A stretch of DNA of 36,632 nt from Reclinomonas americana ATCC 50394 (Eukaryota): positions 1,810 through 38,441 of the forward strand of contig PS015151.1 in NCBI GenBank assembly GCA_048213135.1. The letters are read 5' to 3'. Below are positions 1 to 31,100 of the stretch, one piece after another. A program made the position numbers and the translations under genes. Position 1 is the stretch's first letter; each line of letters opens with the position of its first letter. A model generated the notes under the pieces. It made no database searches, was not told the origin of the DNA, and worked only from the letters and a program-made list of their open reading frames with translations.

Positions 1-2965
1 GGTCACGGCGAGTGCGCCATTGATGGTTCGCGCGATCCCTGTTGGCAGTGCGACCGTGCGGGAAGTACTTGTGCAGCAGCATCTGGCAGCCCTGCGTGAA
101 ATCGGGGCAGTTGCCGTCGTCGAGTCGGTCAGTGATGGCAGCCAACAAGCCGCCCAGATCCGCATCGGCAATGGCCGCCTCGTAGTCGATCATGTCTGTC
201 GAATGCACGTGTGAGACAGCGAGTCGTGATGCACTGACTGGCATAAGTGCAACTCACCGTGTGACGAGTGGAAAGCATCCAGCAGGCGCACGCACTCCGC
301 CAGCGACTGCATGCCGACCTCGGACTGGGAGCGGACGTACAAATAGTTACGCACGTCGTGCATGTACTCGCCCACCAGACGGAAGCCGTGGTTTTCGGCA
401 AACGAATTGCGCGCATGCTTGCGGGCAGCTGTCGCCGTTCCTCGTGCGCCAGAGTCGCCTGAATCCAACGGTTGGTGAGCACAAGGAACACTACTGGGTG
501 CGCAAACAAGGCCAAGGCACGCAACGAACGAGAGCCGTGAGGCAATTCGCAATGTGTGCGATTTCCGTGTCGAAACGCTCCGGCACATTTTGTTCACTCG
601 GCTCGCCACTATGCATGCAAAAGAGAGTTGAGCTCATCAACATGAGAACGAACGAGTTGACAAGACAGAATACACACCGCGCAGTCGTCTTCCAGCGCAT
701 GAGCATGCTGGCCACCAAGTCGTACTGCTGCACAGCCTGCATCGTGTCGCAACAAAATAATCAGCACACTTGTGCATCGACAAAGTCGAGAGACGGATAA
801 ATAACAGACCTCTGCCGACAGCGGATCGACCTGGCCCAGGTGACCGAGGCACTGAACGGCCTTGAGCGACACGTACGCGTCATCGCGAGCCACGTCGTAC
901 ATCTCGTCGCTATGCTGCGCGTGCGTGCGATCACCGGCCGCCGCCAGGAACGACAGCGCTGGAATGCCGCCGTCTTTGAAGACGTACTTGGCATTTGGCT
1001 CGTTGCCTGTGACGAGAGAGTGAGGGATGGGGACAGCGAGTGCGTGGGAGGGCCATGATGAACTACGCACCCTCACACGCCACGAAAATCAGCTCAGTGG
1101 CGACCGCCGTCTCCCATTCGGCTTGCGGTGAGCGGTTCAGCAGCATGCTGTACGGGAAGTGGGGTGTAAGTTGTTGCATTCGACAAGCAAACACACAAAC
1201 GCATCGTCCACTCACCTGCCGACGACAGCTTTGCTGGTTGACTGCTTGCGCGACTTGCGCTCACGCAGAAGCATGGTGGCGTGCACTGAATCGAACTCAT
1301 CTTGCGTCATGACAGCCATGCTGCAAGAGGAGGGGAGTTAAAAATCGACAAGGGACAAGAAAATGTACCACACACAACACCGACCTCAGATCCTTGCGCA
1401 GTGGCGGGCGAATGGATCCTTTTGTCTCGGTGGCCGTGGGGTGAATCACATGGCGCGTGTCGAAGCGACGTGGATCGCCCTGGCGACGGCGGCTGAAACG
1501 GTGCGGCCGATGACCAAGGTGCTCCGACAGTTCCTTGTCGTGGCTAAAGTGCGCCGTGGCACTCATGGCCAACTGCACGCGATACTGATCCTGCTCTGTC
1601 TGGTTGCGCTCGCCGACACGCGGGGGAATGTTGTGCATTCTGCAAGGGGGGGCAAGGGTGAGGACCAGCCGATGTGAAGAAAGATGAGGGCGTGCGGCGA
1701 GGACGCAACTCATGCTGCACCGGCTCCGACAGGTACAACTGGGTGATGCACCACCGGAGCCCCTCGCCAGTGCGGAATCGCGTCTGGTTGTCTTGATGTT
1801 GGTCTGTGTGTGGGGGGCATTATGATGAGCATTTTTCGTGCAGCAGGCGCAGTCTTTCAAACACGCACCCTTCATCAGCAAGTAGAGCACGGCAGCCGAC
1901 AAACGCTTGATCTCCGGCCCATCCATGTAGCCCTTGCCGGCGAGCACGCGCACCAGGTTCTCGACCAGACCGGCCCTGCCAAGCGCCGTCTGCGCATTCA
2001 CCACTGCACGCAACGCGTACACACCCGTGAGCAAGCCACACTCACAAACGACACACTCTGGGCGCGCGATCGCAACTGTACGGGCGAATCTGCAGCGACT
2101 CCTCGACGAGCATCATGGCCATCGTCCACGGGTGCGGATGCCGCGACTTGATAATAATGTCACTCAACACCGGATACACGCTCGTGTTGTGGAAGACATC
2201 GGGCAGCGTGTCTTCGTGAGCCTCACTGACCGTTGTCTGCCGGGGGGAGTGATGAGACAGTGATGACGAAGACAGAGTGACAGAAGGAAGACAAAGACTG
2301 AAGACCGAGAAGATCATCGTGAGTGGAAACAACACAGATTCGATGCGCTGAGTGACGAGAAAGCATCGCAAGTGAGACGCTGAGTAGCGCAGTGACTGGA
2401 AGGGAGCAAAAGGCATGATAGTGGAGTGGCACGGAATCGATGAGCCGTGATGACGACCGGAAAAATGCACCTCACTGGGAAACAGAGCAGCGACATGCGA
2501 CACACACTCTCACTCACTCTCACACTCTCACTCTCTCTCTCTCACACACACACACACCTTAGGCGCATCACGCTGATTGTAGGCGACCTCAAACTCATGT
2601 CGCTGTCGCTTGAGATCATACAACAACTCGCCCATTTGATGCGGAGTCAGCTCCTTGCGCTGTCGACCAAGAAGCACCTGTCACACAACACAAACACAAA
2701 GAGACACATAAAGAGGAAAGAGAGTGAGAATCATGTCATTGAGAAGAGTAACCGCTCTCGGAGTCCTGACGAAATGCGCGTGTTTTCTCTTCTCTCTCTC
2801 TCTCTGTGTGCTTACCTGCAACTGGCGTAAGTCTTCAATGATTGCGCACTGGCACTGGACCTCGTCTGAGCGTGTGGAGAGCACGACATTGTCGAGTGGG
2901 CGAGAGGTGCTGGTGCCCATCGCTCGGAAACTCTCTTTCGTGTGGTTTTTGCCAACTTCGGACAT
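1..2965 (-). CDS. Multi-exon armadillo/ARM-repeat-like helical protein, apparently 3' truncated by the window edge
   Basis: Joining GT..AG-bounded exons gives helical ARM-like segments: VNAQTALGRAGLVENLVRVL...IKRLSAAVLYLLMKDQHQDNQ, ETAVATELIFVACEGNEPNAKYVFKDGGIPALSFL, YVSLKAVQCLGHLGQ. The frame is open to position 1. The ATG at 2965 and the exons between 2240 and 2560 are uncertain. Confidence 0.6.
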
Positions 2966-4882: not shown

Positions 4883-5271
4883 GTGATCGTTGAGGAATGT
4901 GTGGGAGGATGTGTTTAGGGGGTGTGTGGGGTGTGCTTGGTCAGTGCTCGCGTCCCACGGAGTAAAAAAACAGTAAGGCTGTGGCGGTAAACCACCACAC
5001 TGACATTCCCCAGCATCCAAGGGCCAACGAAAAAATTAACCGTCAAACCACCCAGAAATAGGGCCGCAGCTGTGTGAGAGATGTGAGGGTGTTAAGAGTG
5101 TGTGTGTGCGTGTGAGTGAGAGTGAGGGAGGAGAGTGGCGTCATGGCGGTGTGCGTGAGCGAGAGAGTGTGTGTGAGTGTGGGCGTGCCGGGCCAATTGT
5201 CTCAAAAACCAATTTGTCCAACAATAATAAAAATGCAGCTTTTCTTCTGCCCGGTGATGAGAGTACGTTCA

Positions 5272-6753
5272 TTAGAAAATCTTGGCATACCCACGATGCG
5301 GCCACCGCTTGGCGGCGACCACCAGCAGCAGCACACTGAGTGCCAGCGACAATGCCAGCGTGCCGGCCGCAATCTGAAAGTACGTGGCGTAGCAGTGGCG
5401 GCCGTAGCAGAGCAGCGTGACGGGATCGGCCTCGCGGTCGTACAGCGCGCCTGACACGGCGTCAAAGACGACGGGGCCGACGGCCACGGGAGCGGTAAAG
5501 ATGGAGAGCAGGGCGATGAAGGAGAGGCGGTCTTGCTCCATCACATCGCGTGGCACCGCGCGACCCGGGAAGGCAAAGTCGACCACCAGCGTCCAGCTGG
5601 CGCCATACGCAAAGGCATTCATGCTCGTCAGCACGTACATCAAGGTCACGCCGTTGGCGAGCCACGCCACCACCGACACTGTCAAGTGCAAGAAGCAGAT
5701 GGTGATAAGCGCCACGTGGCCGTGCCACGCAGGCGCGTGCTCGTGCATCCACAGCGAGCCCAAGGTGCGGCCGGCAAGCTGGCCGGCACAAAACACGAGA
5801 AACATGTAGGTGACGTCGTGCCGATTGCCGCCCATCGACAGCACCATGGCGCCCATGTTGTTGGTGAAGTTGATGCCGACGGCGAACACCACATTCAGCA
5901 CCAGCAGCACCACGTACACCATCGGCTGCGTGAACATCACACGGTACTCGCGCAACGCCTCCTTCAGCAGGTTCGTGCCGTCGCTCCCCGCGGGCTGGGC
6001 GGCGGTGGCAGCAGCGCCCTCTGCCGCGCTCTGCTCAACGTCGCCCGCGTTTGTCGACCCCGCGGCTGTCGGCAACAACTTGCGGCGCTCCGTCGTGCCG
6101 CCGGTCTCGTGCTTGTACGAGACTGCGAACCACCACGAGGTGGTGGCCACGCACACCAACTGCAGCGTGCCAAAGATGACAAACGTCACCGCCAACTTGG
6201 TGCGCACGTGCGCCTCCGTGTCGAGAAACGTGTACATCACGGCGGCCACGGCGCCGGTGAGCGCATACGAACTCAAATACGCATGCTGCACCATGCGCCG
6301 CTGCGCCGGCACGTCACTGTCCCTGCTGGCCACGTTCATCGCGGGCCCACACAGCGAGACCTCGCCAATGCCCATCAGCGCAATGGCGATGCCAAGCGGC
6401 GCAGCAGCAGTCGGCGCCAGCCACATGCCCAGTGCGCCCGTGAACCAGCCGACTAACACGGCCACCTTGGCGATCAGCACGGTGGCGCGAGGGAATCGCG
6501 AGCCCAGCGGCCACAGAAACAGCTGCGAGGCACAGCCGGCGAGGTAGCCAATGGAGCAGAGCACGTTGGTCAGCTTCTGTGTGAACTCGCCGGCCGTCTT
6601 CAGATCGGCGGCAAAGGCGCCAATCGAGTAAAAGAGGCCGCCTGTCACCGCCAGGAAAGGCAGGCCAAAGTTGGCCAGGCGGCGCAGGTGTGGCGGATTC
6701 CCGCGCCCTTCTGCCGGCGTCGTGGAAGACACGGTGTCTCCTCCCCCAGTCAT
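5272..6753 (-). CDS. Major facilitator superfamily transporter, nodulin-like (NFD4/Mch1-type), 493 aa, intronless
   Basis: Two hydrophobic bundles of about 6 helices separated by a hydrophilic loop. AGQLAGRTLGSL motif in the second half and C-terminal GALYDREA...LCYGRHCY, typical of nodulin-like MFS proteins. Confidence 0.8.
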   Translation of the reverse strand: MTGGGDTVSSTTPAEGRGNPPHLRRLANFGLPFLAVTGGLFYSIGAFAADLKTAGEFTQKLTNVLCSIGYLAGCASQLFLWPLGSRFPRATVLIAKVAVLVGWFTGALGMWLAPTAAAPLGIAIALMGIGEVSLCGPAMNVASRDSDVPAQRRMVQHAYLSSYALTGAVAAVMYTFLDTEAHVRTKLAVTFVIFGTLQLVCVATTSWWFAVSYKHETGGTTERRKLLPTAAGSTNAGDVEQSAAEGAAATAAQPAGSDGTNLLKEALREYRVMFTQPMVYVVLLVLNVVFAVGINFTNNMGAMVLSMGGNRHDVTYMFLVFCAGQLAGRTLGSLWMHEHAPAWHGHVALITICFLHLTVSVVAWLANGVTLMYVLTSMNAFAYGASWTLVVDFAFPGRAVPRDVMEQDRLSFIALLSIFTAPVAVGPVVFDAVSGALYDREADPVTLLCYGRHCYATYFQIAAGTLALSLALSVLLLVVAAKRWPHRGYAKIF

Positions 6754-7686
6754 CTCTCACGCAGCAGTCAGTACTTGTCAGATTGCGACGACGTATCGTC
6801 GGGTTGCCGCGTTGTCGGGTTTCAGGCGGAGAGGCAAACCCGGCGCAGGGTGTTTTTTCGGGCGGCACCTAGAGTGCTGCCGGCAGGGCGCTGTGAGTGT
6901 GTGGGAAAATAAAATGGATTGTGGACCGAGGACACACTGGCGAGACGTTCGTTGGCAACTGCGGTTGGGGATTTTTTCTCTGTGACGTGAATCTCATGTG
7001 GAGGTGCATGGAGGGCTTGTGGTGCATGCATTTGCAGAGTGGTTGCGAATGGCGGCGTTGGCTTGGATGTCGACGTCGACGTCGAAGACATTATCTATGG
7101 AAGTCTGGTGAGCACGGTCGTCGGCGACAGCAGGCCCCTAAGCTTCTTCACGCGCAGCTGGTGCTGACTAGATCCGTGCAGCTGCCGTGGTCGACGTGAG
7201 CCACTCGCTGCAGCATACCCGATTTGGCAACTTCGAATTCGAACACGACCTGTCGAACTCGTGATTTGTTGGCTTGTTGACGGGTCGACACCGCGCTGCC
7301 GCATCCCACAACCGTCCCCTGCACGGGCACCGACATAACATGCCGTCGTATTCATCAGGATCCACTCACACAACCATGCGAACTTAGCACAAGCAAAAGT
7401 CGTAAGAATTTTTCGCCGAAAGGCGACCAGAGCGACTGTGGTCGGGTTGAGATGCGTTGGCGCTTGATCGCGCCAGCGCTACTCCCCGATCACAATAAAC
7501 ACCCACTGGGAAATAAAAGCGAAAAGACTTGCGATCAGCACGAATTCATGGTCGTCCGACGAATTCGAACCGGCCACGGCAATTTCGTTGACGCTTCCTT
7601 CTTTCTCTAGTCCAACCGTGCTCCAAGAGCCAGCACAATCGTCAGTCCTGATGGCAGAAGCAGCAGGGTTTCATGAGACTCTTTTG

Positions 7687-9016: not shown

Positions 9017-12000
9017 ATGTCCTTCACTGAGCGCATGCGGCCACCGACGCCGCCACATGGGTGGGGCGAGGTCGACTCGGCTGAAGAAGTTCCCGAACCC
9101 GAACACGCGTACGACGACGTGACTCGCTCCCCGCGCTGGCCTCTCTATCACGTGCGACCCGGTGGCGAAGACGTCGACTATGCCTACTGGGAGTCGTGAG
9201 TGATGCGAGCATGAGAGACAGAGAGAGAGAGAGTCTGAAACTTTTTGCTAACTCGTTGTTGTCACGCTCCTGTCACACACACACTCTTTCTCTCGCTGTG
9301 TGTGTATGCAGTGTTGCTCGACAGATTCAGACGCCACTGTGGGTCTACGTTGCGTTGAGAATGCATGCATGTGTGTGTTGCATCTTATTCTTCTCTCTCT
9401 CTCTCTCCTCCACGTGATTGCTGACGAAGAGAATCACGTCGTGTGCATTCACACAGGATGTGGAGAACATGTGCATGCGATACGCCAACAGAGTTGCGTT
9501 TCACGCAACTTCTCTCTCTGTCTGTCTCTCTCTCACTCTCTCACAACCTGCTCCTCTCTTTCCCCCCTCCTCAGAGCGCCCTCGAGCTGTGGAACTCTCC
9601 ATCACTCGCTGAGCTCCTCAGCCGCTCGTACTCTGATTACTCGGCCGAGGGATTGCGCTTCTTGGAGAAGGCGAGTACAGTTGCAACTCTAGCTGGTGTT
9701 TTCCAGTCTCTCTTTCTCTCGTTGCTGACTTGTTGCAGGTGATGGACGAGTGGCATACACGAATCCCTGTGCCGTGCAACTACACATACAATGTTGCGCT
9801 TTCTCTTGTCCCTCCACTTACACTGAGTGCTGCTGTTGCTGACTGTGTATCGTGTTCTTTGTGCACAGCCCAAGGTGTGCGCTACCAATGTCATCGTTTG
9901 CGTCTGTGCATGTGCCTCATTGTCGCCCGTGCGTCTGTTATAATTAGGGACAACCGGTGCACACGCGCAGTCTGTGGACGCCGTACTTGTCGCTGACTGG
10001 GCGTGCCCTGATCCAAGTCGAGGCCTTGCCGCTGCCTGATGCGATGCGCCACGAACGCTACATGCGACTCCGTGGCGATGGTCAGTGGTGTGCTCACCAC
10101 CTCCCCCTTTTACCCCATGCCTGGTGTATTCATGAGTGGGTTACCTGTGCTGCCGCGCAGTTATTCGTCGCGCTCGCAGCTACTTGTCCGTCTACTGTGA
10201 GGATGGCAGCGCCACGATTCACAACGGTGCTGCGGCACAGGCGCACGATCTCTCCGGCACCGAGTACTACGAGGAGGTGCGCGACGCCACAGAGCCGGTG
10301 CATTTCGAGTGCCGCAATCGCGCCGCCGGGCACACCGAGCGCGTCGAAGAGTGCCCGTGTGCAGCGTGCTCGCCGAACAGCGATTTTTGGCGACACCGAT
10401 TCCTCGCGCACTTGGAGGACCGAGAGGCTGTGGCGCGCCTCGTGCAAGCAGTTGTGTGCTCGTGGCGAGCAGTTGTCGCACGCGCCTGCTGTCTGCTGAC
10501 TTTGTGGGTGTAGGTGTTCGTCGAGGGCACAATCTTTTCTCTGCCTCAAACTCGGGCGCTGATGCCGAGTGGCAGACGGTGCGCTGCGCGACAGGCGTTG
10601 GCCATGAACGATGTGTCTCTTACTCTTTCTTCCATTCCTCCCCAGTTATCACAGCGTGTTCGCGCGACGGCTCTTGCTGCAAGAGAGCGGTCCGCGCTTC
10701 TTCTTGGTGGAGGAGCAGGACGTCACCGACGTGATTGAGCAAACCGGCGCCGTGCACAGCCTATCGAGCGCACTCAGTTTGGTGAAGCAGCCGCTGGCGG
10801 TGGTTCGCATCGCTGTGGATGCCGTGCAGCACTTTGAAGAGGCGCGTCTGACTCACATCTCGAACGTATGTTGTTTGTGACACACACGCCCTCACACGTG
10901 AACACAGACGGCCGACATGGAGGCTCTGTGCAAGGGCTTTGTGGTGCAGTTTGCCAACTCGGCGTTTTGCAAGGAATGCGGCAATTGCGATCCTTCGTGC
11001 CCTGCGTCGCTGACGGGCGAGGCGCTGGCGACTGTCGTGGCTGCCGAGGACGTGGACAGTGTGCTGCTGCACTTGTTGCGCGCAGTGCAGTCGGGCGAAG
11101 AGGTGCCGTATGCTTTCTTGCCAGCAGGAGAGTTCGGCACTCTTCGTCACATCGGTGTCTCCCTATTACAGGCTTCGGTGGAGGCTCGAGTGCGTGCGAT
11201 AGACAAGTGGTGCCTGTTTGAGATCAAGCCGGTACCGCGAGATAGTGTTGCGTCACTGTCGTCGCGAGTGCGTGAAACTTGGCTGGCGCGCTGATCACTC
11301 GCGTGCAGGCACTGCGCAATGAGTCGACGAGCGACAGTCTCATCGTCGAGCTCACCGATCTCAGCGAACGCAAGGCCTCCCAGCGCACCATCACCGTGTA
11401 TGAGGACATTTTCGAGTTGCGTGCTTCACCAATGCCGCGTTTTCTTTCTTCTTCCTTGGCCTCCTTCTCCAATTCCGTCTGCTTCTCCTCCACTTCCTTC
11501 TCGTCCTCCACCTCATCTTCACCCATTTCTCTTCTTCTTCACCCTCAGTCTCCCCTTCTCCCCCTCTCCCCTTTTCTCTCCTTCTCTCTCTCTCCCTCTC
11601 TCTCCCTCTCTCCGTCTCCTCCCCTCTCTCCTTCTCTCTCTGCTCCCCTTCCCTTCAGAGTTCTCATCGCATTCCGCGCAGAAACATCGAGGTCGGCGTC
11701 GTGGTCTTCAACATTGACAACGCGGTGAACTCTGATCTGTCTGGTCAGCACGGATCTTCCGTGTGCGACGTTGACCTCAAGCTCGAGGTTGCCAACAATG
11801 CCTTTCGCCAGTGGCTCGCCCTGCATGGACGTCGCCAGCGACCCAGTGAAGATGCAAGTTGCGCTTGCATTTATTCCTGCACTTTGTTACCGTGGTCGCT
11901 CTCGTCGCCCACTCATTAATTTCGCGCGACTATGTGCAGGCTCGCTGTTGACAGCAGCAGCGGAGATGCGCAGTACCAGTCAGCGACCGAGTCACTCGAG

Positions 12001-15000
12001 TTTGGATTCATGTTGCGCTGTATTATTGAGTGATTTTCTCTGTCGCGCGCCGGCTGACCCCTTGCATCCTTCCCGCCGCCGCAGTAACCGACTGCAGCAT
12101 CCAAGGCGAGGATTTTGCCGAAGACTGCCGCATCCCGGAGCATGACAGCCAGTACTACAGCCACCCGGCTCGATTGAGCATTCCACGCAACCGGCGCGAG
12201 ATGCCCGAGCTCCCGCCAGAATTGCGCACGTCCTTCCTCGTCGCCGAGTATGTGACGGTGGCCACCACACGGCAGGCGCGCATTGTGCCGCGGTTTCACA
12301 TCTATGGCTGCATTTGCATGCTGCGCATCTTTCCGCTGTCGAGCGGCGGCACCACCTCCGTCGGCCTGGCACTCATTGACATGACCGAGCAGTTCAACAC
12401 GCGCCAGGAGCTGACGTGCGTGGGGAGAGGATGGGAAGCAGGGAGAAGTAATCCCTCGCCTGAGTGCTCATCTGCGTTCGCGGCAGGTTGCACCGACGCG
12501 CCATGGAAAGCACCAAGGAGGGCCTGCTCATCATCAAGCGCGTGGAGCTGGTGCAGCAGTGCGTGGTGCAATTTGTCAACTCGGCATTCTTGCGCATGTT
12601 TCCCGAGGACCTGAATGCCGCCGCGGCTGGCGGTGATTCCAGCGTGTCGAGGTGCGTGTGTGTGCGCGCGCTTGCGTCCTCCTTCCGTCTGTGCTTTCAT
12701 TCTCACGCTGCGTCGACCGCCGTAGTTCCCGATCATCGTCCGAGATGGCCGATTTGTACATTCCACTGAATGAGTTTTTCTCCGATCGCCACGTCCCCGA
12801 CACGGCCAGCAGCCTTCTACAACAATACTTGCTCCAGGGGTCCACGTCGACGGCCTCCTTTGAGTGTGACAACGGGGGAAGCGTGACGCGATGGAGCATT
12901 GTGTGCATGAGGTGTGTGCGTTGTGGGACTTTTGGTTGAGAATGCTGGTATCACAACTGAGCTGCTCTGTTCTGTTGTCGCAGGTGGGAGTCGGGCTCCG
13001 ACTCGTCCTACGTACTAACGGCGACCGATGTGACTGCCGAGAAGCAGTACGAGGCCAATTTGCGGGCTTCAAAAGAAGCGGCGGAGGCTGGATCGCAAGC
13101 CAAGGGCGAGTTCCTCTCCAACATGAGTCACGAGCTGAGGTTGGTCCTCGCGCGCGTGTGTGTGTGCCTCTTTATCTCGATCATCGCCGACTGTGCATCT
13201 CATCACGTGCCACAGGACGCCGTTGAACTCGGTGATTGGCATGTGCAGTGTCATCATGGAGACGCCACTCGACGAGATGCAGCGCGATTGTGTGGCCACC
13301 ATCCAGCTGGCCGGAAAGGCACTGCTTGACCTCATTCAGGACGTTCTCGACCTCAGCAAGGTGGAAAGCGGGAAGTTGGTGCTGGAGAGGAGACCATTTT
13401 CACTCATCAGCTGTGTGGAGAGTGCGGTGGAGATTGGTAAGTAGTATTGCAGCACTGCTGTTTCTCCTTATGCCCGTGTCTAATATATTCTGCTGGCAAG
13501 TGTACACGGCGGCGTCGGACAAGGGTCTCGAGTTGGCGAGTGTGTGCTCCACCACCATCGACGAAGTGGTGAGCGATGAAGCGAGACTGCGGCAGATCAT
13601 TCTCAACCTCCTGTCCAACGCCGTCAAATTCACCGAAGTCGGTACGTGTGTGTGTGTGTGTTTGTGGTCTTTCTTGTCATGGCCGCCCGTGCTTACGTCG
13701 AGGCGGGGGCGCAGGAAACGTGGTGCTGCGAGTGTCGTCACTCGATGCGGCAGCCTACGCCGAGAATATGGAGCGATACACGCGATGGCAGCCGGGTATC
13801 GTCCTCAGCGCGAGCGAAGTGCCACCAGTTGAGTTGTCATCGAGCGACTAAAGGTCGGCGCAATTGGACCCACTCACCCCTTCACTTTGGCTTGCAGTTT
13901 GACGACGATCTGGCCGCAGTACTGGTGTCGGTGAGCGACACCGGCATTGGTATGCCAGAGACGGCCAAGAGCCACATTTTCCAGCAATTCGTACAGCTCG
14001 ACGCCTCTGTCACTCGTCGTTTCGGTGGCACCGGTCTCGGTGAGTCTATTTAGTGCAGGGCGTACGGCAGCAAAGAATGGATATTCATTATCCTGTGACA
14101 GGTCTGGTGATTTCGAAAGAGATTGTGCGACGCCTCGGTGGCGTCATTTGGTTCGAGTCCATTGAGGGTGTCGGCACCACATTCTTCTTCACGTGTCAGC
14201 TCGGCAGACTACCTGGTGGGTGGTGGCCACCACACCGATCCCAGCCAGTAGCTGCGCATTCTGCTCACCGATTTGCCCCCGCACATGCAGAGGCGAGTCA
14301 GGAGGCCGGCGTTGTTGAGGCGTCGCAGAGTCGGCGATCGGTGATGGAGGCATGCCGACGGTACGCAGGTCAAGAGGTGGTGATCGTGACACCGCGTGCG
14401 GCAGTGGAAGAGTCGATACAACAGCACGTGCGTTCGGTTGGCTGCCGTCCGCGCATCATGCGCGCCCAGGAGGAAGTGTTTGAGCTGCTTCGCGAGTGGT
14501 CGTCTGCAGAGCCACCATTCTCGGTACGTGTTATTTCTTGTGTCCTCCCTTGCTCACCTCACTTGCCGACCGTGTTCTTTCGACAGACGCCGCGGGTGGT
14601 GGTGCTGGATACACGATTACCGTGGGTGATGGAGTGGACAAACGAATGCCTCAACGCTCTGTTGCGTGTTGTGGTGTGCGCTACGTCTTGCAGTTCTCTC
14701 CTCATTCGTCCTTTGCCACACAGAGAGCGACTGCAGGCAGGTCCATTACAGTTGCCACCACTAATATTATTCGGGCAGCGCAGTCAGCGGCCAGCAGGTG
14801 TGTGGCTCGGGGAATTTCTCGTGTGCTTCTCACTGACGGTTGATGATGATGACGATGAACAGGACTGTCGTTGCACGTGTCGTGCATGTCGCTCCCGGTA
14901 CAACGACTGCCATTTTGCAGGGATCTGTCGGAGCGATTCGCCGTGTTCCAACAGCGTCTGCTGTCGCCGACTCACGCGCCGGTCGCCGGTCCATTGACCG

Positions 15001-15789
15001 CGACTGCGGAGTGTGACAGCAGTGACACACATCATGCGGAGGGCTCGAGCAATGCGTTGAATGTGCTGGTGGTGGAGGACAACCGCTTGAATCAAGTTGC
15101 GTGAGGCACCGCCTGCTCACGTGAGGAACTGTCACGAATGCTCACTCGGGAGGTGCGTGTGTGTGCGTGTGCACGCGTGCAGAAAGTCATCATGCGACTG
15201 CTTGAGGTTTGTGGTGATCTGTGTTGTTCGGAGCGAGTATCCTCACTGACGCCGCCGATCCGTCCGCCGCAGCAACTCGGCCACCGCGTTGTTGTCGAGG
15301 AGAACGGGCGCTGCGCGCTCAACCGACTGGCGGAGGAACCCACACGCTTCCATTGCGTGTTGATGGATTTGGTTTCGTTCTCCCCTTCCCCTTCCTCACA
15401 AACAAAGTCCTCTCTGCCTGACGCGAGCGTGCGGGATGATTGCAGAACATGGCCGAAATGGACGGTCTGACGGCCACAGCGAAACTTCGTGCGGTGTGTG
15501 TGGTGTGGTGGGTGCACGATATTGCTGCGATACAGGTGGCTCACTGTGCTATCAGGATCCGCGCTTCACGGACCTATTCATTGCCTGCGTGACAGCGGAC
15601 GCTCGCCCGGAGACGCGCGGACACTGCATGAGTGTGGGCATGAATGATTTCCTCGTCAAGCCCATCCACAAGCCAAAGCTGGTGGCCACCTTGGACCTGT
15701 GCCAGCAGCACCTCCGCCAGCAACGGCGACTCTCCGCCACAATGCCGACGCCGACGACGCCGACGATGACACTGGCAAGCGCACCATGA
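9017..15789 (+). CDS. Soluble hybrid sensor histidine kinase HK1 (~5 PAS/PAC-like modules, HisKA, HATPase_c, degenerate receiver, receiver); 32 exons, ~1409 aa
   Basis: H-box [19 protein letters not shown]-box [18 protein letters not shown]1 [10 protein letters not shown]2 [22 protein letters not shown], receiver VLVVEDN...VLMDLNMAEMDG...VTADA...FLVKP. All 31 introns can be placed with consistent phase (e.g. exons 9017-9195, 9312-9348, 9457-9492, 9575-9670, 9739-9792, 9869-9874 ... 15556-15789), and most positions match the paralog. Confidence 0.93.
11416..11681 (+). repeat. Intron expanded by a CT-rich low-complexity tract
   Basis: 266-nt intron dominated by (CT)n/CCCTCT repeats; the homologous HK2 intron (18765-18833) is 69 nt. 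Confidence 0.8.
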
Positions 15790-16166
15790 TAAAACGCGAC
15801 TCGTGTGCTTCTCAGTGCTCATCATCGCGGACACTCGCCATTGGCGGAGTTGCGGCGGGTACGGTGTTCGGAAATGTGTGGTGGTTGTTATTGGAGACCG
15901 AGGTGAGTCCGAACAGGCAGCCTGGAGGGCTGCGCGAGTTGTACCCGGCGTGCGCAACGGTTGTTGTATCTCTGGCGGTCGAGTGTGTGAGGAGCAAGGG
16001 TACCGGTTCAAGAAGGCCTTTTGCATGCGATCGACGCAAAGGGAGTAGCTGCGCGCTTGATTGCCAAGTGCAGGCCACCAACCGTAACACCGAAGCAAGT
16101 AAAACCAGTCGGAGCTTTGCAGACGAGGCAAGCAAGCCGCGGAAGTCGCGAATATGCGGCGATTCT

Positions 16167-16184
16167 CCAATTGGCAGCCAATCA
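16167..16184 (+). promoter_or_regulatory. Putative CCAAT boxes upstream of HK2
   Basis: CCAATTGGCAGCCAATCA about 120 nt upstream of the ATG at 16300; AGCCAATCA matches the NF-Y consensus. Motif match only. Confidence 0.3.
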
Positions 16185-16299
16185 CTTTTGTATTTTGTTG
16201 TTAATTGGAGCAGGCACACGTCAACGACGAGAGAGAGAGAGAGAGAGAGAGAGAAGAGTGCTGTGTGATCAGTGTGTGAGAGAGAGACACACGCCCAAC

Positions 16300-17771
16300 A
16301 TGCCGTTTGTGTACTTGGAGAAGATGCGACCTCCGACTCCTCCTCATCCGTCCGCCGACGATGAGGAGAGCGTCGCTGCTGCTGCCGAAGTCGATGATGA
16401 GGGAGGCAGTGGCGTGGGACGAGGACGCGCGTGCGGGGAGAGCTCGAGAGCAGGAGGAGAGGCGATGAGCGCAGGACACGCGAGAGAAGTGTCGCCGTTG
16501 TGGTCGCGTTACAGCGTGGTTCCCGGAGGCGAGGACATTGATTATGAGTTCCTCGAGAGGTGCGCGCGTGTGTGTGTGTGTGAAAGAGAGAGAGTGTGTG
16601 TGTGTGAATGCGAGTGTGTGCGTGCCTGGTTTCCTTCCGCGAATGAGTGTCCATCTTTGGCGAGTAGGCGATTTTCTTCTCACCCGACAGTACAGACTGG
16701 CCGCGCAAGTGCAGACTCCCTTTTGGGTGTTTGTTGCGTCGAGTGTGTGTGTGTGTGCAAGCCTCATCGAGAGAGCATAAAATGATCTTCGTTTTTCTCT
16801 GTTCATTTCAGGACTTGGATCACTATTGCATGCGCTTTGCGAACAAGGTGCGTCCTCTCTTCGCTCTCCCTTGGTGTGCGGTAAGCGCAACACTGAAACA
16901 TGTATATCTGTGCGCACTATAATAACAGAGCGCACTGGAGTTGTGGAATTCCCCGTCGTTGAGTGAGATGTTTAGTCGCTCGTTCAAGGATATGAGCGCC
17001 GAATCCAGCATGTTTTTGCGAAAGGTGTGCCGAGAGTTGTTTTTCTCGCACCCATGTCCTCGCTCACTCACCCTTTGCCTGTGCACCAGCTGCGAGAGCA
17101 GTGGCATTCACAGATCCCGGTTGTGGTGAATTTCACGTATAACGTTGCGTATTTGCTGTATTGCCTCAATTGCCGTTTTGGAGGTTACTAATTGTCGCAC
17201 AGCCCAAGGCAAGCGCCCTTTTGTCGAATGGAGTTTTGCCATCTGTTTCTGTTGGTTAACTGGTGAGCGCAGGGCAAGGCGGTGCGGACGCGATCTCTGT
17301 TGTCGCCGTATGTATCACTGTCGGGCCGGACGCTGCTCTTCAACGAGGCCACGCCACTGCCGGAAGCCTTGCGCAACGAGCGCAACATGCGATTGTGGAC
17401 CGATGGTGCGCCTGGTTTCTTCATTGTGACCCTCCGGCCACCGACCGTGGCTCATCACCAACCTCCTCCTCCTCCGCAGTGATTCGACGCACGTCGAGCT
17501 ACGTCTCCGTGTATGCCGAGGACGGCAGCGTGGTATTCCACAACGCAGCCGCCATCGAGGCATACAATGTGATCGGTGCCGAGAATTTGGTCGAGGTTCG
17601 CGATGCGGCCGACAATGACCTGTTCGAGTGCCGCAATCGCGCGACCCCGACGGGCGGCGCGGAGGCCGTTGCGTGTCCGTGCGCTGTGTGCTCGCCGCAC
17701 AGTGATTTCTGGCAGCTTCAGTTTTTGCCGCACCTCGACGATCGCCGTGCCGTGCAGATGCTTGTCAAATC

Positions 17772-17810
<39 letters not shown>

Positions 17811-20800
17811 TTCCAAGCGTGCTACTCTTGTCACAGCTGGCTCACTCGATACCGCCGTCAGGTGTTTGTGGACGGCGAGTCGTACTCGGCGCCGCAGCTG
17901 CGCGCCACGATGCCCAACGGCCGACGGTCTGTCTGTCTTCACGAGTGTCTCTCTTCTCTACATGGGCCCCGTCTCAGCTGTTCTTCTTCTGCCGTCGGCG
18001 CAGATATCACCGTGTGTTTGCCCGGCGGCTGCTGCAGCAAGAAAAAGGATCGCGCTTCTTCCTTGTCGAAGAGCAAGATGTCACGGACGTAGTGGAGCAG
18101 TCCGTGGCGATGCACACGTTGACGAGTGCACTCAGTCTGGTGAAGCAACCCCTCGCTGTGGTGAAGATTCCGCGATGTGCCTTGGAAGAGTACGAAGCGG
18201 TATGCAAGGGGGAGAAAGCGGATTGATGCTCACTCTTGATGCTCACTCTCGGACCGTGCAGTCATTCGATCTCAGCGCACTTCATCTCGGCTTCAAGGTG
18301 CAGTTTGCCAACACAGCCTTTTGTCACGAGTGTGGCGAGACGAATGGAGCGGTCGTGGGCAGTGGCCTCTCGTCGCTGGTGGCGGTGGTGGACGCCGATG
18401 CCGTGGTGTTGACTACCACAAGATCCATTCGCACGGGGCACGATGTTGCGTAATAGAGAAGATGCAGCATTTGTTGACTCGAGGATCTTCTGATGGCGAT
18501 GCTGGCGCAGTCTTCGCTGGAGGCTCGAATTAACACTGGCAACGGGCAGACCAAGTGGTGCCTGTTGCAGTTCAAGCCAGTACCGCAAGACCACGTGCGT
18601 CTGCCTCATTCCCCAAACGCATTGTGCGTGATTCCACTCACGGTTCTTCTGCCGCAGGCTCTCTGCTATGATGGTGCGGCCGACAGCGTGATTGTGGAAC
18701 TCACGGACCTTAGTGAGCGCAAGGCTGCTGCGCGCACCATTACCGTGTACCAGGACATCTTTGAGTTGCGCCTTGCTCATGCGGCGCCTCCCTCGGTCGG
18801 TCGCGTCCTTGTCTCACGCTTGCATGCACACAGCAACATTGAGGTTGGCGTGATTGTCTTCAACACAGAGTCTCTGTCGCAGCTGGACCTGGCCGGTGAC
18901 GATCAGTCCGAGACGTGCCAAGTCAGTCTTCCCGTGGAGGTGGCCAACCATGCATTCCGCAACTGGTTCCAGTGGCACGGTCGACGGTGTAGTGCGCGTC
19001 AATCGGGTTGCGTCAACCACGGCGAAGACTTCCGAAAAAGACAATCTTCACTCACGCGTACACTTGGCAGTCACGGAGGATGCGCTGGACGGTGTCGACG
19101 GCGACGACGACGATTCAATTGACAGCGATGTCGATTTTGACATTGGCGACAGCATCAGCATGCATTCGGAGGGCAGCCGCAGTCGATATTCACATCGGAT
19201 GTCCAGCCGTGCGCTGCTCAAACCGGCTGCCGAGTTGAGCAATCTGCCAGCGGCGCTAAAGACGCGATACCTGCTCAACGAGTACCGGCTGGTGGCGACC
19301 ACGCGATCGGCTCGCATCGTTCCACGATTCCAGCTCCTCGACTGCATTTGCATGCTGCGCATTTTCCCACTCTCCAGTGGCGGCGCCACTTCGGTCGGCA
19401 TTGCCGTCATCGACATGACCGAGCAGCTGAATGCTCAGCGTGAACTCACGTTGCGTGCGTGTGCTTCTCTCAGTCGTGCACCTTGACAGCATGGTGTTGC
19501 TCACGGCTGTTAATTCGTGTGTACAACTCGCAGACTGCACCAGAGGGCCATGGAGAGCACCAAGGAGGGTCTGCTGGTTGTGCGCAAGCTGATGCCGTCG
19601 CACCAGTGTGTGGTGCAGTTTGTGAATTCCGCGTTCCTTCGCATGTTCGCCGACGATGCGGATGTGTCCGGCCTGAGGTACACGTAGCTGCTCTCTCTTT
19701 CTCTCTGTTTCCTGTGTCTTCAGGCAGCCTCATCGTTGGCAACTGCAGTTCGCGTTCCGTATCGGGTAACAACTTTGACTTGTGCTTGTCGGTGACCGAG
19801 TTTTTCCGAGATCGCGGTGTGCCGGGCCATGTTATCGCTCGGCTACAGCAATACTTCCACCAGAGCGACACTGCACCAGACTCGTTTGCGTGCGAAACCG
19901 GCGACCTCGCCACGCACTGGAATGTGGTCTCCATGCGGTTGAGTCTCGTGTTGAGGGTGGGCGGAGTCCATCTACGCGAAAAAACTCACATCGCACGGTC
20001 GTCTCCCTCTTTTTGCAGGCTTCAAGCTGGCGACGACCCGTCGTTTGTGCTGACGGTGACCGATGTTACGGCTGAGAAGCAATACGAAGCCGACTTGCGA
20101 GCTGCCAAGGAGGCTGCCGAGGCCGGGTCGCAGGCCAAGAGCGAGTTCCTCTCGAACATGAGCCACGAGCTGAGGTTTGTTCTCATGCCGATTGATCATC
20201 GCCCTCGTGTGCTGTTGAGTTCATCTGCCCTCTGTCGCTGCCGCGCCCTGCAGGACGCCACTGAATTCGGTGATCGGCATGTGCTCCGTTATCATGGGCA
20301 CGCATTTGGACGAAATGCAGCGCGATTGTGTGGCCACCATCCAGTTGGCCGGCAAGGCACTGCTTGACCTCATTCAGGACGTGCTCGACCTCAGCAAAGT
20401 GGAAAGCGGGAAGTTGGTGCTGGAGAAGAGACCATTCTCGCTCCTGAGCTGTGTGGAGAGTGCTGTGGAGATTGGTGAGCTTTGTTTGCATTCGTGCTGC
20501 GAAAGCGACCGAAAAGAACTCATGTGTCGGCTTGCAGTGTACACGGCGGCCATGGAGAAGGAGTTGGAGTTGGCCAGCGTGTATACGGCAGGCGACGATC
20601 ATGTGATCAGCGACGAACCGCGCTTGCGGCAAGTCATTCTCAATCTGCTGTCGAATGCCGTCAAGTTTACACAGTCTGGTAGGGCAAGGCCACCATCGCG
20701 TGCACCAATCCAAGTATCTTATGCTCACTGTGGCCGGCACAGGGCATGTGGTGCTGCGTGTGAAGGAGTTGAATGCCGCCTCGTACGTCGAGGTGATGGA

Positions 20801-22682
20801 TCAGTATCGCCAGTGGCGACCGGATGTTGCCGATGAGGAGATTCCTGCGGTTGCGTCGGGGATGAGTCTGTTGTTTTCCCCCCTCTTCTCATCTTCTCAT
20901 GCGAGTCGGCAAATCGCACAGTTTGACCCCGAGGCGGCTGTTATCCTGTTTTCAGTGACAGACACGGGTATCGGAATGCCCAAGTCGGCCAAGGACATTA
21001 TCTTCCGTTCGTTTGTGCAGCTCGATGCGTCTGTCACACGTCGCTTTGGTGGCACCGGTCTTGGTGAGTCGCACACATAGTGGCAGAGAGGGTTGTGATA
21101 CAAACGATGCTGACAATGGTTGTAGGCCTGGTGATTTCGAAAGAGTTTGTGCGTCGACTCGGCGGTGTGATTTGGTTCGAGTCCGTCGAAGGTGCAGGCA
21201 CCACGTTCTTGTTCACATGTCAGCTCAGTCGAGTGTCACAGGAAGATGGTGCGCGCATCATCTGCTTTGCTGTGTCTCTGTTGCGCATGAAAAGCTGATT
21301 GCTGTTGGGAGCAGGCAACTCCAGCATAGGCAGCAGCATGGTGCTTGATGTTGGCGACGCTCGTCACGCTCGCATTCTGAGACAGGCGCGCAGCATATGT
21401 CGACTGCACTCCGTCACTATCGTGTCGGAGGGGCAAGTGCTAACGGAGAGTGTTCGAGCGCACGTACTGGCCGCTGGCGCCAGGTGTGATGTTGTCACCA
21501 ACGCAGACGACGCGCGTGTTTGCATGACGCAATGGGCGGCCACTGGTGGTCTGGTTAAGGTTTGTAGCGTGTGCGACTTTCTTTCATTGATTGTGGCTGA
21601 CGCTTCTGCTGAGACAGTCACAGCGTGTGTTTGTGCTCGATGTGAGGCTACGTGGCGCCGTGGAGCTTGTGCACCATTTGTTGAGCTTATCGTTGCGCCT
21701 TGTGGTCTCTCGCTTGCCCGTGTGTGGTGGTGTGTGGTACTCACACGCGCGCGTGCGCAGAGCGAGTCGATGCGGTGCGGTAACTACCGATCCGCCGCTG
21801 ATCTTGATCGGGCGGCGCAACTGGCGCCCTGAAGGTGCGCAGCGTGTATTTGGTGTCGACATCTCTGTCGATCTGCGTGCTGATTCCTGCGACAGGCCTT
21901 CCGCCCTCCATGTCGATCCTTTCTGTGCCCGTGCAACGAGTGATACTGCTGGAGCAGCTGACGCGTCGACTGGCCATTCAGCAACAGAGGCACGTGTCGG
22001 CGGACGAGCTGCCGACGGATCTGCTTGAAGCTGTCGACACGGAGGAGTCGTCGAAAGCGCTGAATGTGTTGGTGGTGGAGGACAACAAGTTGAATCAGAA
22101 AGTCATTGTGCGGATGTTGGAGGTGCGTCGTCGTTTGCGGATAATGTTGACTGTGCGTGTGTGTCTCACTGTGTTGGGCGTGCGCGCACAGCAACTTGGT
22201 CACTCGGCGGTGGTCGAAGAAAATGGTCGGCGCGCACTCGATCGGCTTCTGGCCGATGCGAGCCGCTTCCAGTGTGTGTTGATGGATCTTGTTGCGTCGC
22301 ATACTCTACTGGTGGTGCTATTGGTCGCGCCGGCATTCCTCTCACCTCCGTCGTTTGCGTTGCAGAACATGGCCGAAATGGATGGCATCTCGGCCGTCAT
22401 TGAAATTCGCAAGGTCAGCATTTGTTTTTGCTTGCCGCTTGTCTCCAGCGTGCTCACCCAACCACGCAGGATCCACGCTTATGCAACTTGTTTGTGGCCT
22501 GTGTGACGGCCGATGCACGACCCGAAACACGCGACCAGTGCTTGAGTGTGGGCATGAGCGACTACCTCGTGAAACCGATTCACAAGCCAAAATTGGAGAC
22601 TGTGCTGCGGAACTGTGTGGAGACACTACGCTGCACGCAGCAAGTGGCTGCGCGCAGTCCGTCGACATACACGATACCATAG
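16300..22682 (+). CDS. Soluble hybrid sensor histidine kinase HK2, tandem paralog of HK1; 30 exons, ~1420 aa
   Basis: Same domain order and motifs (MRPPTPPH N-terminus, [58 protein letters not shown]...VLMDLNMAEMDG...YLVKP). All 29 introns are phase-consistent and at positions shared with HK1. Confidence 0.93.
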
Positions 22683-28116: not shown

Positions 28117-31100
28117 ATGTCCTCTCAATCCAATCACCCTTCGCCCTCACCCATGAGGTGGCCTCCCCGCCGCCTGCGCCACGGCGCTCTTGTTCTCCTC
28201 CTTCTCACCGCCACCGTCTCACTCTCTGCTCTCATCGGCTACTTTGCCTGCTACGCCTACTTCCACTGGCCACTCGCCGCCTCCTCCGCCGCCGACTACA
28301 ACATGCCTCTGGTGTGGCGCATGTATCACGGACGCGGAGCTTGGGTCCTCTTCGCTGTCGCCTTTTGTGTGCATGCATTAGTGGTGCGCGCACACAGTCA
28401 GTCATCTCTCACACACGTGCGATCATCAGTCTCCTAATCAATGAGGGTGGCAGTCGGTGAATCTGTTGCTTCTTGTGGCGGCGATCACTCGTCGCGCTGC
28501 GCAGGCGAGGTTATTGTTGTCTATCCGATCGATGGTGTCGGTGACTGCGGGATGGAGTGGTGTGTTGGTGCTGGGCTGGTGGATGTGGGTGTCGGGGAGC
28601 GCGTTGGCACCGGAGACCATTCTCTTTGGCATGTGTTGTATGGTTGGCGCGATGACCAGTGCTGGTGGGTGGATGGGGAGGGGCAGAGGGTGAGCAAAGA
28701 TCCGATACTGGCAGTGATTCCACTCTGATCTGTCTCTTTGTGGGCGAAAAGAGAGACGAGTGCGAGAGAAAAGGCGTGGGCGATCAGTGAGTCGATACAT
28801 GCAGCTGTTCCACTCTCTCTTCCCTCGTCCTTCAAGATAGATGAGAGGGTGAGTGTGGACGATCAGAGTCGATGTATGCAGATGTTCCATTCCGATCTCT
28901 CTTTGAAGAGATGCGTGATCCCACGAATGCACCTGCTTCACTTGGAACAGTCGCCTCACTCTCGTTCTTTCTCCCTCCGCCCTCTCCATATCTGTGAGCA
29001 TTGCAAGTGAGAAGGGGAGCGAGCGCGAGAGACAAGAATGAAAGAAGGATCTGTGATTCGGCAGTGGGGGAAGTACCAAGACCGAGAGAGAGAGAGAGAG
29101 AGAGCAATCGCTCGTTCGTCGCGATGCGCTTCTGCTGCTGCCACCCTCTCTCTATATCTCCTTCCCTTTCTCTCTTTGCATCGTGGGGGATTCGCGGTGA
29201 CGAACCCCATCCCATGCCTGTGCCGTCAGCTTTTCGGCGCTTCCTCCTGAAGAGAGAGGGCGGAAGAAGAAGAAGAAGAGGAAGAAGATGTGGCTGAGGC
29301 CGGGTGGAGACAGTCAGTGGCTCGATACATGCAGCTGTTCCATTCCGAGTTGTTCTTCTGTGTCTTTCTCGCTCTCTTTCTCTTTTTCTTTGAGGAGACA
29401 TGAGGAAGAGTGAATAATCGATGATCCCGGGGATGCACCTCGCCTCACTCTCTTTCTCCTTCTGCCCTCTGCATATCTGTGGGCATCGCGAAGGAAAAGG
29501 GGGACGAGCGCGAGAGTAATCACAAGAGAGAAGATAATGACATTGAGAGCAGTATCAGAATGGGAGGGAGAGACTCCCTCTCCCTTCTCCCTCACGCCCT
29601 TTCCCTTCTCCCTTCTCCCTCCCTCACCCCTCACCCCTTCTCCCTTCTCCCTTCTATCCCCCACAGCGGTAATGCTCATGTTCGCCGTGATCCTGCACGC
29701 CCGACGCGCACTCCGCCGAGAGGTTTCCCGCCGCAGCGCACTGCTGGTGGCCGTGCTGGTGGCACTATTATCGCTCTACTTGTCATCCAGTGGTCCGTTG
29801 GGCGCCCTGCTGAGACCTGTGGTGCTGCTGCCCGGCGCCTCCATTGCCTGCTTCCTGGTGTCGCACTTGGTGGAGGTGTTGTCGCCGTACATTGTCAGCG
29901 CGTATGCGCGCCGCCGGCTGGGCCTGCTGCTGGCCGTGATCATTGACGCGGCGGTTTTTGCGGTGTGCTTTGGTCGGCGTGACGAGTGGACACCGTGGAT
30001 GCCTGCGTGGGCCATCGTGCTCTTTTACTTTTTCATGCTGTTGATGGTGGCGTCGGTCGCCATGGCCCTCATTCCGGTGTCTTCCAATTCGATGTTGACG
30101 ACGGTGGCGGTCATTGCCAGCATAGCCAAGCCTGTGGTGCGTGTGCGGAAGCGGGAGGAAGAGCTCTCTTTCGCTACCTTGTCCCCTCTCGCTCATATGG
30201 TTGCAGGTCGGCTCCTGGCTGGCATCGGTCATTGTCGCTGCGCTGTCGGCGTTCGACTCACCTGGTCGCGAGTGGAACGCACGCACACTCAGTGTCGTCA
30301 GCGGCTGCGGTACCTTGCTGTTGCAGCTAATGGTCTGCGTGCGTGTGTGGCGAGGACATTGGCCTGCACGTTTCATCACCTACGCCTTGGTTGGATGTGA
30401 GTGCTGCTCCCTCCCACTGACTCCACTTTGCGTTCGTCCTCTCATGCTCGTGTGCAGTCTTGTGCATCTTCACTGTGCTCGACATTTTCGCCGGCATCAC
30501 GATAGAAATGGAGGGCGCAATGCGCACCATACTGCTTCACGTGATCCAGTTTGTCGTCTACTACGCCGTTGGGCGGTGCACGCGATGGCGGGACCGCACC
30601 ATGCATATTTGCATGGCCATTTGTATTGTGCTGGCCGTGTCTTCCAACACGGTGACCGTCACCGTGTCGGAGCTCTTCAAATCGATGCAGTTATCCCGCG
30701 TTGCCACCACGTGCCCGAACACGGCCGAACAGGGTTGAGTGTTGTCGATGCCACTTCTCACCGACGTCGTGTTGCTTGCTGATGTGTGATGGCACATGCA
30801 GCGTGGCTCATTCGCGACATGTGTGCCGAAACCGAATGGCCGCTGAGCCAGAGACGATTGAGTGCGGCGCGGAGGATAGAACTGGTGTCGCAGTGGTGCG
30901 TTCCTCGTGTGTACTTGTAATCGATGCCGCTTGCTCACTCTGTGACGCAGTGCCGCGATGGTGAATCGATGGCTGGTGTTCGGCTGGTGGATGGTGAGAG
31001 AGAGAGAGTGAGAAAATCCGGATGTTGATCAAATGGGAAGTGTCTCACATGCTTGGCAGATTGTCGCCGTGTTTATGACGGGCGTTGCACGACAGCACGT

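Follow-up and report, generated by a model that had tools for sequence, protein, structure and literature searches.

The exact phosphodiester bond cut at a 5' splice site is chosen in a way that is still partly open, with base pairing by U1 small nuclear RNA (snRNA) on one side and a later check by U6, U5 and Prp8 on the other, and in humans only a few atypical sites allow the two contributions to be told apart. Among these are sites at which the U1 base pairs are proposed to be shifted by one while the cut stays at GU (Roca and Krainer 2009, as outlined in passages of PMC4856993 and PMC9311317). Here, we describe a class of donors that resemble these sites in two tandem genes, HK1 and HK2, of Reclinomonas americana ATCC 50394, within a 36,632-base stretch of contig PS015151.1 that contains five runs of N and has a genic GC content of 0.56-0.62 (hereafter, the window). 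As at the human shifted-register sites, these donors start with GU, have intronic positions that fit the consensus when it is moved one base downstream, and need no G at the last exon position (-1). The human sites, however, are rare exceptions with long downstream complementarity, whereas the class described here, with the motif GUUGCGU, accounts for 21 of 58 introns, pairs with standard U1 at only about -0.9 kcal/mol, and is known from sequence alone.

Human sites in the bulge +2/+3 register, reportedly described by Roca and colleagues in 2012, bear a similar resemblance: an extra U directly after GU displaces the downstream positions by one. These sites keep the -1G:C9 pair, while a G at -1 is not favoured in the present class (4 of 25). 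In many eukaryotes, donors lacking a G at -1 have stronger intronic positions, a dependency known as the 'seesaw'; such compensation strengthens the match within the same register, whereas here the entire intronic motif moves by one base in a discrete step. Co-evolution of U1 and donor motifs has been described in Archamoebae, where Entamoeba combines a U1 carrying AACAAAC with GUUUGU(U) donors and Mastigamoeba balamuthi combines a U1 carrying ACGUAC with a preference for GUGCGC (excerpts of bioRxiv 10.1101/2022.06.08.495308). Mastigamoeba balamuthi is also GC-rich and intron-rich, has GTGCG-like ordinary donors and tolerates U at +3, and a C at +4 (+5 here) would pair with the G of its U1. 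For these Archamoebae the preprint describes one consensus per species, and the same excerpts make no mention of a second donor class for Mastigamoeba; in the window there is a second, shifted class, and GTGCG is followed by T rather than C. According to portions of the Mastigamoeba genome paper, that genome has 60.7% GC, 3.4 introns per gene and only three FixL-like PAS-kinase-receiver genes of bacterial origin, and these kinase genes, the GC content and the introns resemble the HK locus. In literature searches, which did not extend to the supplements of the Mastigamoeba genome paper, none of the papers listed proved to describe a GTTGCG/GUUGCG donor class. We regard the class as U2-type donors in a noncanonical register that are unusual in their frequency and in their discrete coupling to the last exon base. 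If true, this would be a third case, after Entamoeba and Mastigamoeba, of possible co-evolution between donor motif and snRNA, and if about 30% of introns use a displaced signal, the question of how the bond is chosen becomes testable by genome-wide statistics and the organism's own snRNAs.

The two genes were modelled against each other (Table 1), and their introns were placed without reference to a donor motif by requiring both paralogues to show G(T/C) (or AG) at an equal offset from an ungapped tblastx block; five unclear regions were resolved by eye. This placement gave open frames of 1440 and 1433 residues that end at a common point and have 802 identical residues, and translated blocks are 31-87% identical. 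At 24 of the 28 HK2 introns, alignment column and phase are identical to those of an HK1 intron, and the other 4 are 1-13 columns off, in gapped stretches. Pfam matches to HisKA, HATPase_c and a receiver domain (the last under the Pfam cut-off) identify the predicted products of both genes as hybrid histidine kinases, and the N-terminal exons give only sub-threshold hints of PAS domains (E = 0.012 and 0.097). All introns but one are GT-AG (57 of 58), the exception being GC-AG. One homologous pair is ambiguous: opposite HK1 14216-14290, a stretch with no in-frame stop and a length that is a multiple of three, the HK2 intron at 21249-21333 (both on the plus strand) can be read either from 21249 (atg/GTGCGCG, where the slash marks the exon-intron boundary) with the acceptor at 21312 or from 21280 (tct/GTTGCGC) with the acceptor at 21334. 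We adopted 21249 in all counts, the choice less favourable to our finding.

The initial annotation had listed 17 donors beginning GTTG(C/A/T)G among 60 introns. Every one of these positions does begin with this motif, and 14 of the 17 carry a T at +7; the class itself holds up more strongly than first noted, with corrected totals of 21 donors (the additions being 11247, 11858, 12012 and 19007) and 58 introns. Over the 13,156 nucleotides of HK1 and HK2, GTTG(A/C/T)G occurs 39 times on the sense strand, as 21 donors, 10 exonic copies and 8 intronic copies, and 15 times on the antisense strand. Chance placement is excluded because 21 of 39 motif copies are donors, compared with 58 of 1,062 GT dinucleotides (binomial p = 7e-17). 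We consider it very probable, from gene structure and motif counts, that these donors are genuine and that they form a second, abundant donor class in genuine GT-AG spliceosomal introns, with the predicted consensus H/GTTGCGT. In other respects the two classes of HK introns are alike: median lengths are 75 (new class) and 68 nucleotides (ordinary), base composition is equal, CAG is the 3' terminus of 19 of 21 introns in the new class and of 33 of 37 in the ordinary one, and YTRAY lies 8-60 nucleotides from the 3' end in 8 of 21 and 13 of 37, respectively, with CTCAC-like motifs noticed by eye. No length, 3' end, composition or branch motif specific to either class was found in this comparison of 21 with 37 introns. 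None of the 25 new-class donors in the window has the U12-type sequence /RTATCCTT; at +3 to +7 they read TG(C/A/T)G(T/C/A).

The new donors carry the ordinary motif displaced by one base. We examined base composition in a pooled table of 79 donors, quoted for this purpose only, since 21 of them come from two non-HK genes in which they were predicted with exon positions, which favours an association with the exon base. The 54 ordinary donors have G at -1 in 48, G at +3 in 34, C, T, A or G at +4 in 21, 16, 12 and 5, G at +5 in 50 and T at +6 in 37, giving the consensus G/GTG(C/T/A)GT. The 25 new-class donors have C at +5 in 21 and T at +7 in 19, and A, T, C or G at -1 in 9, 7, 5 and 4. Aligned from the conserved G, the two heptamers, GGTGCGT and GTTGCGT, differ at the second base only. 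This displacement, already noted in the initial annotation, was borne out by a weight matrix (columns -1 and +2 to +7) for which only the 37 ordinary HK donors were used: the 21 new HK donors have a median score of 7.7 bits if the reading is moved one base downstream and of -8.7 bits if the register is normal, compared with medians of 5.5 bits for ordinary donors (leave-one-out) and -0.9 bits for 185 non-donor GTT sites, 8 of which score as high as the lowest new-class donor. The donor pattern is thus one motif at two offsets.

The choice between the two offsets is associated with the last exon base. In the HK genes, the new class is used at 18 of 22 donors that follow A, C or T and at 3 of 36 that follow G (Fisher p = 1.6e-8), confirming the association proposed earlier from counts of 15 of 20 and 2 of 40. 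Four ordinary donors follow a non-G base, namely 9196 (C/GTGAGT), 10866 (C/GTATGT), 12416 (C/GTGCGT) and 18595 (C/GTGCGT). Donors of HK1 and HK2 are not independent samples, and changes between the paralogues carry more weight. The 28 shared introns have the new class in both copies at 6 positions, in neither at 15 and in one copy at 7. In four of these seven switches, the new class follows a non-G base and the ordinary donor follows G (9493/16848, 10451/17773, 18445/11103 and 22291/15372), and no switch goes in the opposite direction (0 of 7). Three of the four pairs had been pointed out before, and their comparison sites (16848, 17773 and 11103) read as quoted; the pair 15372/22291 is an addition. 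The same pattern appears in the 3' part of a minus-strand gene (within 1-2600), where the three new-class donors are all preceded by a non-G base (A, A and C) and G precedes 9 of the 10 other predicted donors; this sample is independent of the HK genes, and its introns were predicted ab initio with a donor matrix that lacked exon positions. The sequences given earlier for two of its donors (2076 and 1709) are correct, and 525 is a third; their status as introns comes from the ab initio model. Predicted donors of a gene at 29.4-32.4 kb varied with the model and were given little weight.

We computed duplex energies, given here as means, for three registers (normal, shifted and bulge +3) across 68 donors, 58 of them from the HK genes and 10 from the minus-strand gene. 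When the U1 5' end is the conventional one (AUACUUACCUG, taken from the section concerned of Tan et al. 2016, PMC4856993), the 44 ordinary donors pair at -6.6 kcal/mol in the normal register, while the 24 new-class donors reach -0.4 (normal), -0.9 (shifted) and -0.9 kcal/mol (bulge). For comparison, a shifted-register test oligonucleotide described in a part of the same paper, ACAGUCAAGUAUA, has a value of -6.5 kcal/mol. With energies this close to nil, no register of a standard U1 accounts for the new class. A U1 with the core ACGUAC, modelled as an 11-mer with assumed flanks, gives -8.3 kcal/mol for the ordinary donors in the normal register and -0.4 (normal), -4.7 (shifted) and -3.6 kcal/mol (bulge) for the new class, 21 of 24 sites of which have their best energy in the shifted register. 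The C at +5 in 21 of 25 new-class donors, against a C at +4 in 21 of 54 ordinary ones, suggests that the pairing partner carries a G at this position. The earlier proposal of U1 pairing shifted by +1 therefore holds in part: the freedom at -1 and the displacement fit it, the energy with standard U1 (-0.9) does not, and it would work only with an altered U1 (-4.7 with ACGUAC). For the same reason, the analogy drawn with the human shifted sites, which need long downstream complementarity, fails unless U1 is altered.

Our preferred explanation is that both classes would present one heptamer, G-(G/T)-T-G-Y-G-T, to the reader of the 5' splice site. In ordinary donors, the first G of this heptamer would be the last exon base (G/GTGCGT), and in the new class it would be the first intron base (/GTTGCGT), with the cut being placed before whichever GT the heptamer holds. 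The most likely reader would be U1 snRNA one position out of register, with G+1 opposite C9, a mismatch between U+2 and C8, and +3 to +7 paired. The U1 of this lineage may carry a G in place of the usual second pseudouridine (ACGUAC-like), which would let C+5 pair, and a later step involving U6, U5 and Prp8 would then select the GU. What the sequences show is the donors, how frequent they are, their tie to the -1 base and the equivalence of the two motifs at a distance of one base; U1 as the reader, its altered 5' end and a shift rather than a bulge are what we infer. As a whole, shifted-register reading by a U1 with an altered 5' end is the best-supported explanation of the data, and we assign it a probability of roughly 0.4. 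It is possible, and we put it forward tentatively, that in this organism the spliceosome, as a matter of routine, sets the U1 register independently of the cleavage site, with about a third of introns placing G+1 opposite C9 by means of either a lineage-specific U1 (G at position 5) or a second U1 isoform, in which case this would be the first organism to use a shifted register as a standard mode and a natural setting in which to ask what later component determines the cut.

A number of observations weigh against this explanation. All data come from one 36.6-kb window, with two paralogues and ab initio models of two other genes, and the altered U1 is assumed after the example of another organism, Mastigamoeba balamuthi, whose published logo differs from the ordinary donors of the window in favouring C at +6, where T is favoured here. 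With standard U1, the energy of the shifted register (about -0.9 kcal/mol) is practically nil and equal to that of the bulge. Three of the seven switches occur without a change in the type of base at -1 (11247/18595, 19450/12416 and 19938/12912), and the -1 bases of the new class in the HK genes (A in 7, T in 7, C in 4 and G in 3) are weakly A-rich, though pairing with U10 would favour A. Inside a conserved HK2 exon, the plus strand carries a full-consensus copy at 17668, c/GTTGCGTG, that is apparently unused; together with exonic GTTGCG copies at 11075 and 31856, it indicates that the heptamer alone is insufficient for donor use. Finally, an ACGUAC U1 should pair with H/GTGCGT in the normal register at least as well as with H/GTTGCGT in the shifted one, yet H/GTGCGT is rare, so pairing energy alone does not account for the preference of the new class for non-G exon ends. 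This rarity suggests that a G opposite C9 matters beyond pairing energy, or that a dedicated reader exists.

Such a dedicated reader could be a protein, U1C or Luc7 for instance, or else a second U1 isoform complementary to GUUGCGU (for example, one in which A replaces C at position 8), with -1 lying outside the recognized stretch. The almost nil pairing of the new class with standard U1 in any register would be expected if this were so, as would its greater uniformity (+5 C in 21 of 25 and +7 T in 19 of 25, compared with +4 C in 21 of 54 and +3 G in 34 of 54 ordinary donors), and precedents exist in the human variant U1 genes with altered 5' ends, known to us from partial sources, and in the mix of standard and modified U1s in Physarum mentioned in the excerpts of bioRxiv 10.1101/2022.06.08.495308. 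One reader suffices, however, given that the motifs differ at a single heptamer position and that the new class, read in the shifted register, outscores the average ordinary motif, and the two intron classes are alike in length, 3' end and composition; we therefore view a dedicated reader as having a minor chance of being correct. Bulge pairing, in which G+1/C8 and U+2/A7 would pair, one U (+2 or +3) would be bulged, and +4 to +7 would pair as +3 to +6 normally do, would generate the same one-base displacement. In its favour, bulge +2/+3 pairing has been validated at a few dozen human sites, and Tan et al. 2016 (PMC4856993, in the part cited) list 68 sites for bulge +2/+3 and 51 for +3. Its mean with the ACGUAC U1 is -3.6 kcal/mol, and with that U1 it is the most stable register at the sites with G at -1, such as 19007 at -9.2 kcal/mol. 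What distinguishes the two registers is the exon base: in a bulge, the -1G:C9 pair would add several kcal/mol and G would be expected at least as often as in ordinary donors (48 of 54), whereas it is found in 4 of 25 and, within the HK genes, falls below the expectation from codon position (3 observed, 6.8 expected, n = 21). The lack of a G preference at -1 fits the +1 shifted register, in which C9 is occupied by G+1, and makes the bulge rather unlikely.

Explanations that dispense with an unusual register fare worse. Incorrect gene models, or genes not spliced as predicted (through use of other GT sites or through decay), would turn the class into an artefact of placement, and it is true that one intron pair is ambiguous and that our own gene finder was too noisy when run with GT-only donors and drifted to GTT/GC and other sites when given one trained donor matrix. 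Two full-length open frames with conserved domains, intron positions and phases common to the paralogues, ungapped junction alignments and the improbability of the motif falling at boundaries by chance (p = 7e-17) make such an artefact very improbable. The drift of the single-matrix model at several sites pointed to another reading, in which these are GC-AG donors cut three bases downstream (HGTT/GCGT); the reading frame is kept, and frame alone does not discriminate between the two. The eight informative junctions (the seven class switches and one intron absent from HK2) do discriminate, because all of them align without gaps only when the cut precedes GTTG, and the downstream cut adds one residue and one alignment gap at each, including the intronless HK2 junction. 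At that junction, HK1 reads AATCAA/.../AAA and HK2 reads AATCAGAAA, both encoding NQK, and GTTGCG is used despite a GTGAGG five bases downstream. The GC-AG reading would also need the exonic GTT to be invariant whatever the phase of the intron (phase 0 at 12 sites, phase 1 at 3 and phase 2 at 6), and we regard it as excluded for practical purposes. More generally, gene finders with a single donor matrix will misplace such introns, as did the one used here, which displaced the boundary by three bases. Recently inserted mobile introns, akin to introner-like elements, could underlie the common 5' end in place of a mode of recognition, and both HK1-specific introns (12012 and 15096) belong to the class. 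The 21 introns nevertheless have no common sequence past the first 7 bases (5' and 3' ends compared by eye, with no formal clustering), range from 62 to 266 nucleotides in length and end like ordinary introns, and the class is present in both paralogues at six positions, which are hence older than the duplication; mobile introns therefore have next to no plausibility as its source.

Table 1. Gene models and new-class donors in the window (exon bases in lower case; the slash marks the exon-intron boundary).
Feature	Coordinates	Strand	Remarks
HK1, hybrid histidine kinase (predicted)	9017..15789	+	31 exons/30 introns, 1440 aa (amino acids); HisKA, HATPase_c, receiver domain; paralogue-guided model, Pfam
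HK2, paralogue in tandem with HK1	16300..22682	+	29 exons/28 introns, 1433 aa
HK1 intron 2 donor tac/GTTGCGT	9349..9355	+	homologue 16733
HK1 intron 3 donor aga/GTTGCGT	9493..9499	+	paralogue aag/GTGCGTC at 16848
HK1 intron 5 donor aat/GTTGCGC	9793..9799	+	homologue 17144
HK1 intron 7 donor gca/GTTGTGT	10451..10457	+	paralogue tcg/GTGTGTG at 17773
HK1 intron 11 donor agt/GTTGCGT	11247..11253	+	paralogue cac/GTGCGTC at 18595
HK1 intron 12 donor cga/GTTGCGT	11416..11422	+	homologue 18765
HK1 intron 13 donor caa/GTTGCGC	11858..11864	+	
HK1-only intron, donor cat/GTTGCGC	12012..12018	+	
HK1 intron 21 donor cca/GTTGAGT	13828..13834	+	
HK1 donor tct/GTTGCGT	14661..14667	+	homologue 21692
HK1-only intron, donor caa/GTTGCGT	15096..15102	+	HK2 continuous, both NQK, cut fixed exactly
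HK2 donor ttt/GTTGCGT	16733..16739	+	
HK2 donor aac/GTTGCGT	17144..17150	+	
HK2 donor gat/GTTGCGT	18445..18451	+	paralogue gag/GTGCCGT at 11103
HK2 donor tga/GTTGCGC	18765..18771	+	
HK2 donor cgg/GTTGCGT	19007..19013	+	G at -1
HK2 donor cac/GTTGCGT	19450..19456	+	paralogue gac/GTGCGTG at 12416
HK2 donor gcg/GTTGAGT	19938..19944	+	G at -1; paralogue gag/GTGTGTG at 12912
HK2 donor gcg/GTTGCGT	20850..20856	+	G at -1
HK2 donor atc/GTTGCGC	21692..21698	+	
HK2 donor ctt/GTTGCGT	22291..22297	+	paralogue ttg/GTTTCGT at 15372
Minus-strand gene donor aca/GTTGCGA	2070..2076	-	first intron base 2076; ab initio model
Minus-strand gene donor tga/GTTGCGT	1703..1709	-	first intron base 1709; ab initio model
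Minus-strand gene donor ttc/GTTGCGT	519..525	-	first intron base 525; ab initio model
Possible donor agg/GTTGAGT, membrane-protein gene	30734..30740	+	unstable ab initio model, low confidence

Several individual donors deserve mention. Two sites on the plus strand, 15372 (ttg/) and 31727 (aca/), read GTTTCGT and resemble the new class with T for G at +4, and four ordinary donors that follow G (13140, 15207, 20175 and 21560) read GTTTGT or GTTGGT, recalling the GTTTGT consensus of Entamoeba. The only GC donor among the 58 introns is HK1 9671 on the plus strand (aag/GCGAGTA), the HK2 counterpart of which, at 17025, is aag/GTGTGCC. The HK1 intron that begins at 9493 opens with a perfect hairpin (9493-9509, plus strand; GTTGCG-TTTCA-CGCAAC) that would sequester the donor, and inspection by eye of the first 24 bases of the other 20 new-class HK introns revealed no such hairpin. 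The two HK1-only introns (12012-12084 and 15096-15182, plus strand), both of the GTTGCG class, are either recent gains of the class or losses in HK2.

Searches for relatives of the kinase genes covered metagenomes and protein collections. A metagenome scan with the HisKA exon returned 80 loci with at most 61% identity over the best segment, several of them on contigs of 70-940 kb, and all taken to be bacterial; near-full-length matches reach at most 54% identity and include contigs of 70-130 kb that look bacterial. None of these 80 loci was usable as a relative for intron comparison, and the HK exon at 10157-10450, queried against longer proteins, found no match. Intron density in the window is uneven, the kinase genes having 28-30 introns per ~4.3 kb of coding sequence while a 383-residue WD40 open reading frame (ORF) has none and a 471-residue exon stands alone. 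If the kinase genes are bacterial in origin, their introns would represent a massive gain.

A scan of the window for Rfam families and tRNA genes found neither, and the ORF at 3383-5035 had no usable match in the ESM Atlas. In the ORFs tested from what the initial annotation had called an ARM gene, on the minus strand, Pfam gave neither an ARM nor a HEAT match; the minus-strand region 1-7336 may comprise two genes. The exon at 5296-6708 on the minus strand, which encodes 471 residues, has 49 relatives in a full-library search, the best at 33% identity. Among the 28 of these 49 that we looked up, the only named species are Balamuthia mandrillaris, Paramoeba aestuarina, Mylnosiga fluctuans and Andalucia godoyi; two relatives are called 'MFS family permease', and those in Balamuthia and Paramoeba are hypothetical proteins. 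Taken together, these protein affinities lean weakly towards amoebae. All matches of the WD40 ORF (34703-35854, minus strand) were to WD40 proteins of a generic kind from bacteria and fungi. A minisatellite (26421-26752, plus strand) lies upstream of the membrane-protein gene, where GC skew is strong (0.30); its unit, AAAGTGTGCA, is repeated about 33 times, and the array has a higher-order period of 143.

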